Positions 4,256 to 10,910 of a stretch of 64,000 bases of DNA are shown in pieces. The DNA comes from a virus (lineage: Duplodnaviria; Heunggongvirae; Uroviricota; Caudoviricetes): the IMG/VR virus record IMGVR_UViG_2529292920_000018, positions 2,322 to 66,321 of that record. The stretch is one strand, 5' to 3'. The first letter of the stretch is position 1. Every line of letters begins with the position of its first letter. Under the pieces are notes generated by a model. The model searched no databases and was not told the origin of the DNA. It saw only the letters and a program-made list of their open reading frames with translations. Position numbers and translations under genes: made by a program.

Positions 4256-5136
4256 ACACTCCTCGTCAGTATTCTGGCGGCCATTGCACTTAATCCCGGA
4301 GACATGCGGTTGAATGCTGTGCCGGCGGCGTTAAGCTGCCCGGAAACGGTATCCAGAGCACCTGCAATATTTCTTTTGTCCACACCACTCAGCGCAGACT
4401 GTGCCTGCTGTACATACGTGGCTGCTTCGCTGGCTGTTCTGGCCAGACTGATGGCATCGGGCATGGATTCAGAGAGTGCGTTAAACGCCGGAACACTTTT
4501 CCCCAGAGCCCCGGAGATATTACCCAGTCCGCTCATCAGCCCCGGCACACGGGTCAGTGCGACAACGGGGTTATCCTTCATTTTCTGTGTCACCCGAACG
4601 GCGCTGATAGTGGTCTGGAGTACAGACTGCGCCTGTTTCGCATAGTTGACGCCGTTGCGGATGAACTGCGCCACCCCTGAAGGTGAAGGTATGGCACCGG
4701 AGACCGCCCCGACACCCGGGAGCTTCGTGCGTATTGCCGGTGGTTGCAGAGGATTTTTCGGGTCACCGGTGTATTCCCGGAGAGACACGGTGGCACTGAC
4801 AGCCAGCACGTTGCCGGTACTGTCAGTCTGCTCGCTGGTTGCAGTCACATCGGTAATCACGAACCAGCCGCGATAGTCACCGTTGCCGAAGACCAGCGCC
4901 AGTGCCTGATGGGCTTTCATGGCTGTTCGCAGTCTCGCCAGCTCCACATCGGGTACACAATAATGCTGATGGAAAACCAGAGTTATCTGGATTTCGTCCA
5001 GCCTGTCGCCGACGAACTGCAGGCCAGGCTTACCCCCGATGCGGGCATGCTCCGCATAATCGACGCCGAACGTGGCCTCGAAGCCGTCCCAGTAGGTAAT
5101 CAGCTCAAACTCAATATCACCCAGTACGGCAAACAT
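4252..5136 (-). CDS. tail protein (gpU / Mu N DNA-circulation-like)
   Basis: 294-aa ORF immediately downstream of tape measure, in the position of Mu N / P2 U. Confidence 0.5.
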   Translation of the reverse strand: MFAVLGDIEFELITYWDGFEATFGVDYAEHARIGGKPGLQFVGDRLDEIQITLVFHQHYCVPDVELARLRTAMKAHQALALVFGNGDYRGWFVITDVTATSEQTDSTGNVLAVSATVSLREYTGDPKNPLQPPAIRTKLPGVGAVSGAIPSPSGVAQFIRNGVNYAKQAQSVLQTTISAVRVTQKMKDNPVVALTRVPGLMSGLGNISGALGKSVPAFNALSESMPDAISLARTASEAATYVQQAQSALSGVDKRNIAGALDTVSGQLNAAGTAFNRMSPGLSAMAARILTRSV

Positions 5137-8087
5137 CAGCGGTACTCCTTACGTTGTTTCTGAGCCAGCAGACGCTCCAGCATTTTTTCCAGCTCATGCA
5201 GACTCATATTCAGGGCACCAGTCAGTCCTGCAGGCGCTGTGGTTTCCCTGCCATTGAGGAAAAACTGAGGATTAAAGCTGACCTGGATACCACCAGACGT
5301 TCCACCGCCGGTTGCAGCTGCACCACGGCCTGAATATCCGGCAGCCAGGATTTCAGGCGAGGGGATACGGGGAACATCCGGTGTCATCTCATTTGCCAGA
5401 CGTTGCCCTGGTAAAATCGATGCCCGGGTGGAGAGCGGAATAGCGGGCATGGAAGACAAACTATTGATTACGGCTCCGATCGCATTTTTAGCAGACGACA
5501 TAAACCCATTGATATCGGGCAACGGCATACTGAAGCGAACACCTGAAGTGTTATCCCGTATTTCTGGCCCCTGGATGCTCACGGGCATTCTGGGGAGCAG
5601 TTCACTGGCCATTCGCTGCCCGGCCAGAGCTGCAAGCGGAGTGGTCCGCTGCAGGCCAATGGCGGCCCCCTGCGCGATATTGTCACCAAAGCCCATAAAC
5701 ACGCGGCTCGGCGAATGAATGCCCAGCTTTTCGCTGAACCAGCCACTGATGCTGTCACCCATTCCGGTTACACTGGATTTGAGCGACTCCCATTTGTTTT
5801 TGATACCGTTAATCAGACCATCGACAAGATGGCCACCGAAGTCGGTAAACTTTGCCGGCAGATCAACACCAAGATATTTCAGCGCAGCTGCAAAGGCTTT
5901 ATAGAGCAGACCTGCCGGCGACCAGTTAATCAGCAGCTTACCAGTTCCCGCGATACCGCCGTTAAAGGCTTCCTGAATGTCAGCCCAGCACTGTTTAAAC
6001 CAGCTACTGATGCTGTCACCCATTCCGGTTACACTGGATTTGAGCGACCCCCATTTGTTTTTGATACCGTTAATCAGACCGTCGATAAGATGGCCACCGA
6101 AGTCGGTGAACTTTGCCGGCAGAGCAACGCCGAAATATTTCAGCGCAGCCGCAAAGGCTTTATAGAGCAGGCCTGCCGGCGACCAGTTAATCAGTAACTT
6201 ACCAATTCCCACAATGCCGCCGTTAAAGGCTTCCTGAATGTCTGCCCAGCGCTGTTTAAACCAGCCACTGACTGCCCCCCAGTTGCGGTAGATAAGGTAA
6301 GCTGCTGCCGCGACAGCGGTGATAACGAGACCGATGGGATTCATCATCAGCGCACGTCCAATCCAGAGAACAGCACGTCCGGCGAGCATAATTCCGCGAA
6401 CCAGCCCCCCGGAGAGCACGCCACTCAGTGTTCTGGCTCCTCTGGCGACGGCGCTAAATCCGGTCACCAGCCAGCGGAGCTTACCGCCTTGCCCCAGTGC
6501 GAGCGACAGACGAAGCCAGTTGGCCCGAAGTAAAACAGCATTTTTCCAGACACTTACAAAGGGGGAAATAAGGAGATTCAGCCCCAGTTTGAGACCAACA
6601 GTCGCTATCTTAATCGCAAGGAGCGCACTGATGAGCTTAAAAGCCCCACTGACAAATTGCGGGTGAGTCGCTACCCAGTGTTTTGCCCCCTGAATGAGTG
6701 GAAGCAGTTCCTGAGTCAAAGAAATAAAAGATGGAGCTAATTGATCGCCCAGCGTAATTGCCAGATCGCGACTGCTGACCATAAGTGTTTTAGTGGCTTC
6801 AAGGGGAGATTTCAGCCGCTGATCATAAGCACTGGCAAGCAAATCGTTATCCGCAGCCCTGAGAGCACCGGCACGGATCTCTCGATATCTGTCCATGTTG
6901 GCCAGCATCGGGCGGATAAATGCCATGACCTGCATATCCGCGAACATATCGCCCAGACCAAAGTTTTTCGCCAGAGCCTGAAGTGCCTCATCTCTTGCCG
7001 TATCATTCTTTATTTTCATGGCTGATTTGAAGCCGGCCAGCGCTTCGGGGCTTTTGGCATTGAGGTAACGTTCTATAACACTCAACATCCCTTCAATCGG
7101 AGAGATCCCCGCAGCTTTATAACTCGCAATAGATCCCTGCAAATCAATACCCAGATCAGCAAACTGTTTCTGAGTATCGCGGGCAAAAATTTTGGTAAGA
7201 AAGTTTTTAAAATTATTGGCTGCTTCGTCGGTGGAACCTGCACCGATTTTTGCTATCTGGAGACTGGCCCCTATTTCAGCAACAGCCTCTTTTCCACTGG
7301 CAATACCCGCCATCATTGGGGCCAGGGACTGCATCCACTTGACCTGATCCGGGATTTCAAATGACCCCTGGTCACCGGCATAAGCCATAATATTCTGAAC
7401 GGCACCAAAATCTCTGGCCGCACCTTTCAGGGAGTTTTGCCAGACTGCGGCCACTTTTGCCCAGTCCTGAGCAGACGTGCGTGTTGCCGTTGCCGCGCGG
7501 GCAATATCCGGCATCAGAAAACCGATATCTGACACATTATCAATATTGTCGCTGATGAGTGAACCCACCGCCTCCTGCAGCTCATCCTGATACTGATTGT
7601 ATTTAAGCGCCCAGCCTTTTATCTGTCCGGCAAGTGCATCCCGCGTTTTATTGTCATATTTTGCGGTGATCGACATATCAATCATTTTGTCCTGAAAAGA
7701 CATGGACTGCTGAACGGCAGGGGAAACCGTATGATAAACAGTCTGTGCCATGCCATACGCTTCAATCCCCTGACCATACAGCGCCATGCGGTTAGCTTTC
7801 AGCGCATCACTGGTAGCGGATGCCGCTGACAGACGGCGCTGCTGGCGCTCAATTTGCTCCATGGTGCGGCTTACCCGCAGCAGCTCGCTGTTGAGATGCT
7901 GCATCCGGGAAGAACCCAGTTGACCATAACGTTCTGTTGCACGGGTTAAAGCGTTCTGACGTTCCTGCAGGCGGCGTGAGGTATCGCTCAGGGAATCAAG
8001 CGCACGGCGGGTACCGCTCATTGCAGAACGGAATGTGCTACCAATCATCCCGCCGATAACAACGCCGACTGAAAACTGTCCCGACAT
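5136..8087 (-). CDS. tail tape measure protein
   Basis: 983-aa ORF, Ala/Gly-rich with predicted coiled coil; contains an internal 86-aa tandem duplication. Confidence 0.85.
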   Translation of the reverse strand: MSGQFSVGVVIGGMIGSTFRSAMSGTRRALDSLSDTSRRLQERQNALTRATERYGQLGSSRMQHLNSELLRVSRTMEQIERQQRRLSAASATSDALKANRMALYGQGIEAYGMAQTVYHTVSPAVQQSMSFQDKMIDMSITAKYDNKTRDALAGQIKGWALKYNQYQDELQEAVGSLISDNIDNVSDIGFLMPDIARAATATRTSAQDWAKVAAVWQNSLKGAARDFGAVQNIMAYAGDQGSFEIPDQVKWMQSLAPMMAGIASGKEAVAEIGASLQIAKIGAGSTDEAANNFKNFLTKIFARDTQKQFADLGIDLQGSIASYKAAGISPIEGMLSVIERYLNAKSPEALAGFKSAMKIKNDTARDEALQALAKNFGLGDMFADMQVMAFIRPMLANMDRYREIRAGALRAADNDLLASAYDQRLKSPLEATKTLMVSSRDLAITLGDQLAPSFISLTQELLPLIQGAKHWVATHPQFVSGAFKLISALLAIKIATVGLKLGLNLLISPFVSVWKNAVLLRANWLRLSLALGQGGKLRWLVTGFSAVARGARTLSGVLSGGLVRGIMLAGRAVLWIGRALMMNPIGLVITAVAAAAYLIYRNWGAVSGWFKQRWADIQEAFNGGIVGIGKLLINWSPAGLLYKAFAAALKYFGVALPAKFTDFGGHLIDGLINGIKNKWGSLKSSVTGMGDSISSWFKQCWADIQEAFNGGIAGTGKLLINWSPAGLLYKAFAAALKYLGVDLPAKFTDFGGHLVDGLINGIKNKWESLKSSVTGMGDSISGWFSEKLGIHSPSRVFMGFGDNIAQGAAIGLQRTTPLAALAGQRMASELLPRMPVSIQGPEIRDNTSGVRFSMPLPDINGFMSSAKNAIGAVINSLSSMPAIPLSTRASILPGQRLANEMTPDVPRIPSPEILAAGYSGRGAAATGGGTSGGIQVSFNPQFFLNGRETTAPAGLTGALNMSLHELEKMLERLLAQKQRKEYR

Positions 8088-8162
8088 AGTGGTTAACCTC
8101 CGGGGAAGGTGAAAAGACGTGAGGGGATAACGCAGAACAGCCGCTACTGGCGGCTGTCTGTA

Positions 8163-8420
8163 CTATGATTTGTCGCCGTACTCGCTTTTTATTTGCTCTT
8201 CAGCCTGCTCCAGCCACATCTCCAGATCGTCAGTATCGAGGGCATCAATCTCCCCCGGCTGAAACCGGAACCATCTCGCCAGCAGCCCCTGCGCCTGCGT
8301 CAGCGCCCTGGTTGCTCTCACCCATCCCCGTGATGAGCTGAAATCGTTTCTGTAACTGCAGGTAATCAGCCAGATCCATATTGTCGAGATCTTCCGGGAG
8401 AAGACCAGTACTGCGGGCAA
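8163..8420 (-). CDS. putative frameshift extension of tail assembly chaperone
   Basis: Overlapping alternative frame ending with acidic tail ...FQPGEIDALDTDDLEMWLEQAEEQIKSEYGDKS just before tape measure. Confidence 0.4.
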   Translation of the reverse strand: MPAVLVFSRKISTIWIWLITCSYRNDFSSSRGWVRATRALTQAQGLLARWFRFQPGEIDALDTDDLEMWLEQAEEQIKSEYGDKS

Positions 8421-8580
8421 TCAGCGGTTCGTCCCAGTCTGCCGGGTTTTTGCTGATTTTGCGCACCTGCTTCAGGTCTTTTACCGTCAGGCGTTTCAGT
8501 TCAACCAGCTCAATTCTGGTGCCTGCAGCAGTGGTGAAGGGATAAGACAATTTAAAAGTATCGGATGGGGTCTGTGACAT
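8245..8580 (-). CDS. tail assembly chaperone (upstream frame of a putative frameshifted pair)
   Basis: 111-aa ORF between tube and tape measure; overlapped by ORF 8163..8420 in another frame. Confidence 0.55.
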   Translation of the reverse strand: MSQTPSDTFKLSYPFTTAAGTRIELVELKRLTVKDLKQVRKISKNPADWDEPLIARSTGLLPEDLDNMDLADYLQLQKRFQLITGMGESNQGADAGAGAAGEMVPVSAGGD

Positions 8581-8677
8581 GATTGTGCTCCTGTGTAAGT
8601 TCAGGGCAGTATGTCGGGAGAAGCGCGTGACGGATATTAAAGGAGATTAAGAAGAAGGGGCCGGAGCCCCTGTGATG

Positions 8678-8959
8678 TCAGCAAGTGCGAAACCCCTTGC
8701 AGTTACGCAGGAAAGCGATGAGAAGCGTCTTTCCCTCAGATTTGCCGATGCCGGAGAACCAGTGGTCGGGAGGCTCCCATGCTTCAATCAAATCCGCCAG
8801 TTTGCGGGCCTTTGAACGTGTGCAGTCAATCGGGTCATTGGTTTTACGGGTATTAAAAAGGGTTTCCACCCCCGGAATATCAAGGAGGGTAAACCACGTA
8901 CCATTTGACATGCCCAGTGCCGCACATCGTCCTCCTTTATCCGTCAGTTCAACACTCAC
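8678..8959 (-). CDS. hypothetical protein
   Basis: 93-aa ORF between tail tube and chaperone. Confidence 0.35.
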   Translation of the reverse strand: MSVELTDKGGRCAALGMSNGTWFTLLDIPGVETLFNTRKTNDPIDCTRSKARKLADLIEAWEPPDHWFSGIGKSEGKTLLIAFLRNCKGFRTC

Positions 8960-8961
8960 CG

Positions 8962-9483
8962 TCAGCCCCCGATATTGATACGGTAGTCAGTCAGTTGATC
9001 AACACCGCCGACCCGGAAGATGTTGGCCAGATAGTCCAGTTGCAGCAGCTCTTCACCATCCAGTACCTGTCTGATATACGTGCAGGTGAAGCTACTGGAG
9101 AACTCGGCGTTCTCGTGCTGTTTGAACGTCCCCAGCGGGTTCTTCTTGAACATAATCGTCAGGAAGGTGACCAGCGGGATTTCGTCAATCAGCCCCTGCG
9201 AGCTGTAGCGCTGGACGCTGGAACGACACTGCAGTGCCAGCGACCTGTACGGGTTCGCGGCAGACAGCATCGCATCGCGGTAAAAGCTGTTCCATTTGAT
9301 TTCGCCTTCCAGTTTGTCAAAACCAGCCGGGAGTTCCACCTTACCCACCATCCCCAGCGCCTTGTGTTCCTGCATAATCATGGAGACATCGGGGAGTTTA
9401 ACTTCCTCAGCCCGTCCCAGCAGGTTAGTACCATCCAGATAGATGTTGGCATTCGTGATGCGGTTTATCTCAATCTTTGACAT
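8962..9483 (-). CDS. tail tube protein
   Basis: 173-aa ORF immediately downstream of sheath. Confidence 0.8.
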   Translation of the reverse strand: MSKIEINRITNANIYLDGTNLLGRAEEVKLPDVSMIMQEHKALGMVGKVELPAGFDKLEGEIKWNSFYRDAMLSAANPYRSLALQCRSSVQRYSSQGLIDEIPLVTFLTIMFKKNPLGTFKQHENAEFSSSFTCTYIRQVLDGEELLQLDYLANIFRVGGVDQLTDYRINIGG

Positions 9484-10910
9484 CAGTTGCCCCCTTTCAG
9501 GGTTAACAGGTATTCCGAGGTGATCTCAGTCTCAAACGTCAGTCGCTCCAGCGGCGGTGGTGGCGTATATTTGTAGCTCAGCAACAGGTGCCCGGCGGCC
9601 AGCTCCGTCTCCGGATTGCGGGCCGGATCAAACCAGCAACGGAAGCCCAGTACCGCACCATCACCAGTCATTTTGCGACCGTAGGCGTTGACCGACTCCG
9701 TCAGTGCATCAATCAGCGCCTGAGTAATCGGCATGTCGATGTACTGCTGGCTGAAATAACGAATGGACTCGTTGATCACATCACCGGTGCGGCGAACGTT
9801 CTCAAAGTTACGCATATGGGTGACCGTTGGCCATGCTGCCGTCCGGTTACCCCACAGACGAAGGCCGCTGCCGTAACTGCTGAATACCGTGGTGATCCCC
9901 TGTTCGTTAAGCAGGTTCACCTCACTCTGCGGGTCATCAATCATCGCGGACAGCTGGCGCTCCACGCCGGTGATCCCCAGAATCTCCTGATTGGAGGATG
10001 ACCACCAGTAGCCCTTGTCCAGATCGACTCTGGCACGCAGACCTGCTGCACGCTGGCTGAGCGGCTCCAGACGCTCTGTGTTTGTCACCGGGTCATATAC
10101 CTTCACATGCGGATAGCACAGACGGACGCGGTCGGAGCTGGTATTGAAGTTGATGGTGCCTTCCGGGCCACGACCTGCCAGAGCCTGTGCAAAGGTGGTA
10201 CCGACAGGCGCATCAATGTAGGTTACCGCGCCCAGCTTCTCTGCCATGGCGATAAGCTCAACTGCGACACTCTTCTGGGTGCAGAACACCGGCGCAATCA
10301 GAATTTTGGCGAAATAGCCGTACAGGTTGAAGCTGTCGTTAAGCAGCTTCATGCCGGTTCGGTTTCCGGCGCTGTTCACCCCGCCGATGATGTCCGCCGC
10401 AGTCACCTTCGACGGGTCCGCGTACTCATAGCTCACCTTCACGCTGCCACCGGCCTCAATAGCCTTGCCCAGGTTCGTGAGCACACCCGCCTGCGCATCA
10501 ACACGGTAGTCCGTGTTCGCCGTGTGGGTGGTGCTGCCTTCACTGTTTTTCACCACCACATTAGCGACAACCGGATGCGCCAGTCTGGCCTGCCCTGTCG
10601 ATTTGTCAAAGGTAACCACCTCATCCTCGATCGCCGTTTTATGTTTCGCCGGGTCGAGGACGTTAATGACCAGAACGGTGCCTGCACCATGGTCATAAAT
10701 CGCATCCAGCGCCTGCGGAATGGTAAAGCCGGTGAACTGGCTGCCAAATGCCGCTGCGTCTTTCTCAGACAGGCACTGTACCAGCGTATTGACATCCCCC
10801 ATCGGGGCGGTACCAATCAGGCCAATAACGGCAGATTTCACCGTTTTAACCGGGCGGGCTCCGTTTTCCACCTCAATGGTTTCGGGACCATGCAGATAGT
10901 TAGCTGCCAT
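9483..10910 (-). CDS. contractile tail sheath protein
   Basis: 475-aa ORF; size and position typical of a tail sheath. Confidence 0.85.
   Translation of the reverse strand: MAANYLHGPETIEVENGARPVKTVKSAVIGLIGTAPMGDVNTLVQCLSEKDAAAFGSQFTGFTIPQALDAIYDHGAGTVLVINVLDPAKHKTAIEDEVVTFDKSTGQARLAHPVVANVVVKNSEGSTTHTANTDYRVDAQAGVLTNLGKAIEAGGSVKVSYEYADPSKVTAADIIGGVNSAGNRTGMKLLNDSFNLYGYFAKILIAPVFCTQKSVAVELIAMAEKLGAVTYIDAPVGTTFAQALAGRGPEGTINFNTSSDRVRLCYPHVKVYDPVTNTERLEPLSQRAAGLRARVDLDKGYWWSSSNQEILGITGVERQLSAMIDDPQSEVNLLNEQGITTVFSSYGSGLRLWGNRTAAWPTVTHMRNFENVRRTGDVINESIRYFSQQYIDMPITQALIDALTESVNAYGRKMTGDGAVLGFRCWFDPARNPETELAAGHLLLSYKYTPPPPLERLTFETEITSEYLLTLKGGN

Follow-up and report, generated by a model that had tools for sequence, protein, structure and literature searches.

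Layout of the tail chaperone locus

The window analysed here is a 64,000-nt stretch of a Caudoviricetes genome (IMG/VR virus record IMGVR_UViG_2529292920_000018, positions 2,322 to 66,321), in which the gene for a 111-aa tail assembly chaperone is overlapped at its 3' end by a second open reading frame (ORF). At 99.6% identity, this stretch matches Escherichia phage PhiKM (genus Bcepmuvirus). The ORF list and the translations of the window placed all of the local tail genes on the minus strand, and their coordinates are collected in Table 1. The chaperone gene sits between the tail tube gene and the tape-measure gene, the position that genes of the lambda G/GT class occupy. The tape-measure gene, annotated as such in PhiKM and in RefSeq, is its downstream neighbour, and the tape-measure protein is the expected client of the chaperone.

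The second ORF is in the +1 nt (equivalently -2) frame relative to the chaperone gene and is open from stop to stop between 8420 and 8163 on the minus strand. The two ORFs share 8420..8245, or 176 nt. The second frame ends in ...EQAEEQIKSEYGDKS*, with its TAG at 8165..8163, and this end lies 75 nt ahead of the tape-measure gene. Five stops interrupt the +1 frame in chaperone codons 1-53, and none occurs in its last 85 codons. A first-pass annotation of this DNA, made from the letters alone, had described overlapping chaperone ORFs ahead of a tape-measure gene, with an overlap of about 170 nt and a second frame that was in +1 (or -2) rather than -1 and ended just before the tape-measure gene; the minus-strand layout found here agrees with that description. 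The functional overlap is shorter, however: counted from the candidate shift site, it extends ~96 nt to the stop of frame 0 (8340..8245), not 170.

Conservation of the +1 frame

Relatives were gathered as 78 loci from IMG/VR, 42 from GTDB species genomes and 18 around BcepMu and Pseudomonas phage Bise; phages BcepMu, Mu and P2, a Salmonella prophage and phages of Ralstonia, Pseudomonas and Pasteurella were also compared. The detailed check covered 63 relatives that share the layout, with 50 distinct extension sequences and chaperone identities down to ~30%, and these span Enterobacterales, Pandoraea, Ralstonia, Verminephrobacter, Burkholderia and Pseudomonas. The +1 frame was uninterrupted from the Phe80 codon, within the tetranucleotide UUU_C, to the end of the extension in 63/63 relatives, and the -1 frame was broken by stops in nearly all of them. 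The peptide encoded by the extension, ...LLARWFRFQP[GS]E[IL]..L...[DE]....W[LVI]..A..QI..., was better conserved than the frame-0 C-terminal tail, whose stop shifts position from relative to relative.

The distribution of variable sites followed the same pattern in both coding parts. Mean entropy at frame-0 codon positions 1, 2 and 3 was 0.65, 0.44 and 1.12 in the chaperone body, and at frame +1 codon positions 1, 2 and 3 it was 0.58, 0.38 and 1.10 in the extension. Over the 21 nt that lead up to the first of the frame-0 stops, entropy at position 3 of frame +1 was 0.44, versus 0.03 and 0.14 at the other two positions. The +1 frame is under purifying selection. The first-pass annotation had named two outcomes that would have told against it, a second frame that is not conserved in relatives and synonymous-site variation at odds with dual coding; instead, the frame is conserved as protein and the variable sites switch to the third positions of frame +1.

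No +1-frame start codon was conserved, the best position being shared by 15 of 44 distinct sequences, and the only candidates in the window were a TTG at -77 and a GTG at +22. Given this lack of a conserved start, the only conserved way to express the extension would be as a fusion with the chaperone.

Family assignment of the chaperone and its extension

The 111-aa ORF matched Pfam Phage_TAC_7 (PF10109) with 74.8 bits (E 5.5e-21, residues 8-81; curated cut-off 25 bits), and a Phage_TAC_7 match was found in 19/19 relatives scanned. Its product is named 'phage tail assembly protein' in RefSeq. When 8580..8341 was joined in silico to the +1-frame extension, a 138-aa fusion was obtained, which reads ...LQKRF followed by the extension sequence in Table 1.

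The extension of the window scored 16.4-18.4 bits against Pfam Phage_P2_GpE (PF06528), below the curated cut-off of 23 bits (best E 0.0015), and this sub-threshold alignment covered profile positions 4-36 of 37. Among 19 diverse relatives, nine had a Phage_P2_GpE match at E <= 0.01, the best at 2.9e-7. A profile of the predicted fusions aligned with P2 gpE+E' over 126 columns across both parts (hhalign probability 94%, E 1.3e-7). On these profile matches, the extension is taken to be homologous to the E' part of P2 gpE+E'. The Phage_TAC_7 assignment, the homology to P2 E' and the conserved frame support the suggestion, made in the first pass, of a frameshifted chaperone pair.

The extension also matched PHROG 8286, a group of unknown function (E 1.3e-32), so that some phage records evidently call it as a stand-alone small ORF. 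NCBIfam held no model for the extension or the fusion, a sequence search of the PDB gave no match, and an AlphaFold model of the single fusion sequence had a pLDDT of 55 and was unusable.

A candidate +1 shift site

Stops in the relatives limit where a shared shift site can lie. A +1-frame stop occurs three codons upstream of the TTT codon for Phe80 in Pandoraea, Ralstonia, Verminephrobacter and phage Komp_PAO1_1 (Pseudomonas), and a frame-0 stop occurs 10-11 codons after the Phe in the phage Bise group. With stops on both sides, a shared site is confined to ~14 codons, and the sole invariant bases within this interval are TTT and the C that follows, which were identical in 63/63 relatives of this architecture. 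The frame-0 context in the window is CGA TTT CAG (8346..8338), in which UUU is followed by a pyrimidine, as in a UUU_Y site. The first-pass annotation had pinned down no slippery site and had suggested that conserved motifs be sought in the overlap across relatives; UUU_C is such a motif, placed close to the beginning of the overlap and not to its end, and its slippage is predicted from its conservation.

This conservation extends to synonymous positions. The residue after Phe80 varies among Q, H, L and R, yet its codon begins with C every time. Across the eight positions -3 to +4, per-site entropy was 0 at all but one, the third Arg-codon base, where it was 0.18. The Phe80 codon is TTT even in high-GC hosts, and in BcepMu as a whole TTT makes up 17 of 90 Phe codons. 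The codon just before the TTT, where it encodes Arg, is CGA in 43 of 44 cases, compared with ~5% of Arg codons in these phages. The overlap contained no X_XXY_YYZ heptamer, and its frame is wrong for a -1 shift.

According to passages of the review by Atkins et al. 2016 (PMC5009743), bacterial ribosomes are particularly liable to shift by +1 at UUU_Ynn, UUU_Y is apparently the site of the functional YopN-TyeA shift, and tail chaperone shifts of -1, -2 and +1 are all on record. PRFect was trained on 350 forward cases (PMC10274946). The homologous position in BcepMu reads UCC_UUU_CGC, which is nearly identical to the influenza PA-X cassette given there, UCC_UUU_CGU. No description of a UUU_C site for this clade was found in the literature searched.

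Proposed mechanism

We consider it probable, from the comparisons above, that the locus encodes the chaperone pair of a BcepMu-like prophage and that its long form, a 138-aa fusion, would be made by a +1 slip at UUU_C. The assignment to UUU_C is made because one site is taken to serve the whole family and because of the synonymous-site conservation. A shift at UUU_C, its direction (+1 rather than -2), its low efficiency and the function of the extension are all four inferred. Most ribosomes would stay in frame 0 and produce the 111-aa chaperone. In a minority, peptidyl-tRNA-Phe (anticodon GAA) on UUU (8343..8341) would slip by +1 and re-pair with UUC (8342..8340); the +1 re-pairing with UUC is perfect, and -2 re-pairing at UUU is not possible. 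After the slip, 58 codons would be read in the +1 frame up to the TAG at 8165..8163, and residues 1-80 of the product would be the chaperone domain, joined by a short linker to a helical tail that resembles E' and is conserved. If the fusion works as lambda gpGT does, binding of the tape measure would fall to the N-terminal part common to both products, and the tube protein would be brought in by the extension and polymerise around the tape measure.

Several observations weigh against a +1 slip at UUU_C. The tetranucleotide is a weak, context-free site, and its efficiency is thus not predictable. The 0-frame A-site codon, CAG, is not rare, no Shine-Dalgarno-like sequence was seen upstream of UUU_C, and no conserved downstream RNA structure was found with RNAalifold on 17 diverse sequences (-3.1 kcal/mol, 6 pairs, no covariation). 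From UUU_C to about +26 nt, or ~8 codons, variation still follows frame 0. Within the enterobacterial clade, sequence constraint alone would allow the shift anywhere from Phe80 to ~17 codons downstream, and the narrowing to UUU_C assumes one homologous site for the whole family. Phe80 is itself conserved as an amino acid, and ordinary constraint on the protein explains some of the conservation of TTT. The CGA is replaced by TCC, GCC, GTG, GCA or AAA in the BcepMu and Pseudomonas groups, and is therefore not essential. Mu, the closest proven relative with a +1-frame extension, uses -2, not +1.

Because no conserved RNA structure and no Shine-Dalgarno-like element were seen and the A-site codon is not rare, a shift at UUU_C is probably inefficient. 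A low efficiency would suit a ratio of the G/GT type, which for lambda is put at about 30:1 in a passage of PMC5009743. As a speculation, the rare CGA that almost invariably precedes the UUU might, once in the E site, promote the slip through its weak I:A wobble pairing. A broader proposal, which we regard as possible but rather doubtful, is that CGA_UUU_C is a dedicated bacterial +1 cassette, in which the E-site CGA would tune the slip and the product ratio without a hungry codon, a Shine-Dalgarno-like element or RNA structure, and that -1 (P2 and Pasteurellaceae phages), -2 (Mu) and +1 shifts (the BcepMu clade) would have replaced one another within a single homologous chaperone family, at or close to one domain boundary and with the extension domain retained.

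Alternative explanations

The +1 frame might instead be entered at another, lineage-specific place between Phe80 and about codon 97, for example by out-of-frame A-site binding, which involves no slippage, with UUU_C kept for other reasons. When the enterobacterial clade is taken alone, its stops confine the site to ~30 codons (-5 to +25 around Phe80), the frame-0 constraint lasts ~8 codons past UUU_C, and both frames seem constrained around GAC GCA GGC GCA. We nevertheless judge this unlikely, as no other shift-prone motif in the interval is conserved even within Enterobacterales (GCA, ACA and CCA vary) and the synonymous-position conservation of the TTT, the next C and the CGA would be left without explanation. 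A slip of tRNA-Gly on a G run, by -2 as in Mu or by +1, could take place either at G5 (8256..8252) or at GGG_G (8289..8286, in GCA GGG GCT). A +1-frame chaperone extension has its model in Mu, where the shift is by -2 on CGG_GGG_CGA; the G5 run lies three codons ahead of the stop, a place typical of shift sites, and several database 'fusion' proteins join the frames exactly at this run. In many relatives, however, the frame-0 stop (GTT TAG) lies upstream of the G5 run, and in many others the run is absent and the sequence reads CCGAGTGAG, with the upstream +1 peptide QxLLARWFRFQP still conserved; a shift at G5 would skip the conserved LLARWFRFQP. The GGG_G varies among GGC, GGA and GCG, changes that are synonymous in frame +1, which indicates that this frame is already in use there, and GGG_G was rejected as the shift site in favour of a position upstream. 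The database fusions, 138-aa proteins included, join at assorted homopolymers, look like indel errors and are uninformative, and a slip on either G run is accordingly given very little weight. The Mu-type -2 shift is characterised by a G run inside the functional overlap, which this clade does not conserve, and the P2-type -1 shift by an extension in frame -1 and a slippery run of 6-7 T, whereas this clade has its extension in +1, a run of three T and stops that close the -1 frame; with these defining features lacking, the element belongs to neither type. Transcriptional slippage was set aside, as a run of three T would be too short for it.

A second frame that forms a separate small gene with its own start codon would not need a shift at all. 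Stand-alone calls are frequent (PHROG 8286 and database entries of 85-86 aa), and BcepMu gp42 is annotated with an ATG start. Against this stand the unconserved start positions, the record annotation of the homologous P2 E' segment as a proven frameshift fusion, and the match of the fusion profile to gpE+E' from end to end, so that a separate gene is about as improbable as a slip on a G run. The extension is unannotated in the sampled RefSeq records, and short ORFs that overlap GC-rich genes are common, which might suggest a chance open frame or a decaying remnant without a product; this is effectively refuted by a frame that is open in every one of the 63 relatives, across several orders of Proteobacteria, with coding-type substitutions and homology to a Pfam family.

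Two other candidate sites in the overlap were tried and rejected. Re-pairing of tRNA-Ala by -2 (GCA to GCG in GGC GCA) is broken by GGT GCA, GGC ACA and GGC CCA in relatives, and the GGG_N after ACN (8325..8322) reads GGC, AGC or GGT in several Enterobacterales. In loci of Erwinia tracheiphila and in several database proteins, a single base was missing in or immediately before the G5 run (in one alignment, in the preceding CC). This loss fuses frame 0 straight to ...EIDALD..., skipping LLARWFRFQP. Such losses are either homopolymer sequencing errors or pseudogenes, and the run is an indel hot spot.

Neighbouring features, annotation and distribution

Table 1. Features of the tail chaperone locus, in coordinates of the window.
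Feature	Coordinates	Strand	Remarks
Tail sheath gene	10910..9483	-	Pfam Phage_sheath_1
Tail tube gene	9483..8962	-	Pfam Phage_tube
93-aa ORF, unknown function	8959..8678	-	between tube and chaperone genes
Tail assembly chaperone gene, frame 0, short form	8580..8245	-	111 aa, ATG...TGA, stop included
Candidate +1 shift site CGA_UUU_C	8346..8340	-	Arg79-Phe80 and first base of codon 81; inferred from conservation and bracketing stops
+1-frame extension	8163..8339	-	58 codons and TAG; SSSRGWVRATRALTQAQGLLARWFRFQPGEIDALDTDDLEMWLEQAEEQIKSEYGDKS
Conserved core of extension	8184..8282	-	fusion residues 100-132, LLARWFRFQPGEIDALDTDDLEMWLEQAEEQIK; counterpart of P2 E' domain
G5 run (GCC GGG GGA GAT TGA)	8252..8256	-	three codons before frame-0 stop; Mu-like candidate, rejected
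GC-rich hairpin ACAGCCGC-CAGTA-GCGGCTGT	8137..8157	-	read from sequence; between extension stop and tape-measure start
Tape-measure gene	5136..8087	-	983 aa, ATG at 8087; Pfam PhageMin_Tail, E 2e-20

The 93-aa ORF (8959..8678) matched PHROG 1239, also of unknown function (E 4.7e-48), and gave a weak, sub-threshold match to DUF7739; P2 and BcepMu have no gene at its position. Between this ORF and the chaperone gene lies a terminator-like hairpin on the minus strand (8656-8671, AGGGGC TCCG GCCCCT, followed by a T-rich tail), within what is expected to be a single late tail operon. The hairpin between the extension stop and the tape-measure start was kept in the relatives, with sequence variants, in the alignments. 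Lacking a T tract, it was not called in the terminator scan and is no classic terminator.

The tape-measure gene contains a 261-nt (87-aa) tandem duplication at 5737-6271 of the window, with 2.0 copies that match at 92%. In a RefSeq E. coli strain whose flanks are otherwise identical, the tape measure is 1070 aa long compared with 983 aa here, exactly one unit more, and the PhiKM record has a sequencing gap within the same gene. Variation in the copy number of this 87-aa unit is expected to change tail length.

The label 'Mu-like' used in the first pass stood in part. The prophage is BcepMu-like (genus Bcepmuvirus) and has P2-type tail genes, and its shift site is not that of Mu. The same DNA was present in 641 of 5,426 complete E. 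coli genomes (~12%). The PhiKM annotation at this locus gives only 'tail protein E' (111 aa), and among the 12 best RefSeq matches only the 111-aa form, 'phage tail assembly protein', was annotated under the match. In NZ_CP025851.1, the single record that was opened, the 157 nt before the tape-measure gene are unannotated. The long form of an essential tail gene is absent from the sampled records of this E. coli prophage. Gene finders tuned to -1 heptamers will go on missing this clade. A contig deposited under an actinobacterial genome (NZ_PJIO01000028.1, 'Arthrobacter sp. GMC3', 8.2 kb, coverage 6.9) was 99% identical to the E. coli prophage at the protein level and is probably assembly contamination.

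Taken as a whole, such a chaperone pair is ordinary and to be expected in a phage, apart from the uncommon direction of its predicted shift; a specific candidate slippery site is now added, and the picture of tail building is unchanged. The short, conserved +1 motif with synonymous-site conservation is directly testable in E. coli.

Comparison with known systems

The element is a member of the class that includes lambda G/GT, P2 E/E+E' and Mu gp41. In Burkholderia phage BcepMu (AY539836), gp41 is the homologue of the 111-aa chaperone and gp42 that of the extension, also in frame +1. The BcepMu record pairs gp42 with gp43 as the equivalents of lambda G and T and annotates gp43 as an alternative C terminus of gp42, the lambda T equivalent, whereas the comparative data pair gp41 with gp42. 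By sequence comparison, gp43 appears to be mis-assigned and gp41 + gp42 would be the true pair. The gp43 region itself (AY539836 4859-5364), which also occurs in the loci of other relatives, ends in ...CAT and, in phage Bise, carries a minus-strand annotation; no such insert occurs in the window.

P2 makes gpE and gpE+E' by a programmed -1 frameshift at T_TTT_TTG (Christie et al. 2002, as cited in AF063097 and PMC3931495). Its locus resembles that of the window in gene position (sheath FI, tube FII, E/E' and tape measure T), in the Phage_TAC_7 chaperone with a homologous Phage_P2_GpE extension, and in having as its shift site, a candidate one in the window, a Phe codon where the chaperone domain reaches its C-terminal edge. 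The linkers to the FxWPP/FRFQP core are of similar length (24 vs 27 residues). P2 differs in having its extension in frame -1, against +1 here, and a T run of 6-7, against 3. In protein and profile alignments the slippery Phe of P2 falls ~3 residues downstream of Phe80, and the T runs share columns only in the DNA alignment. By these alignments, the two shift sites are placed at the same domain boundary and not on the same Phe codon.

Mu gp41/Mu_56 has a verified -2 frameshift (Xu, Hendrix & Duda 2004, as cited in AF083977 and PMC5009743). Like the window, Mu has a chaperone of the same Pfam family directly upstream of the tape-measure gene, with an extension whose frame is reached by +1 or -2. 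The shift in Mu takes place on G5 (CGG_GGG_CGA), ~20 codons past the Phe80 equivalent, with tRNA-Gly re-pairing at -2, whereas G runs are not conserved in the clade of the window. No sequence similarity between the Mu extension and that of the window was evident on inspection. With lambda gpG/gpGT, the locus shares the gene position and the predicted arrangement of two products with a common N terminus and a set ratio; passages of PMC5009743 state that the shared part binds the tape measure in lambda and that the extension binds the tube protein. Lambda differs in showing no sequence similarity, in its -1 shift at G_GGA_AAG and in its non-contractile tail.

The other UUU_Y sites (the E. coli argI error site, Yersinia YopN-TyeA and influenza A PA-X) have in common with the window the tetranucleotide and the proposed re-pairing of tRNA-Phe from UUU to UUC. 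They lie in unrelated genes, and here the A-site codon is usually CAG, which is not rare, and the conserved neighbour is the upstream CGA. Distant members of the chaperone family in Pasteurella phage AFS-2018a and a Volucribacter psittacicida prophage have the extension in the -1 frame, with a G_GGA_AAG heptamer at the end of the chaperone gene that is unannotated in the phage record. The TAC_7/GpE family thus includes extensions reached by -1 in P2 (T_TTT_TTG) and by -2 in Mu, and extensions in the +1 frame in the clade of the window. It offers a natural comparison between lineages that would join one chaperone to one extension by different shifts, whether -1, -2 or +1.

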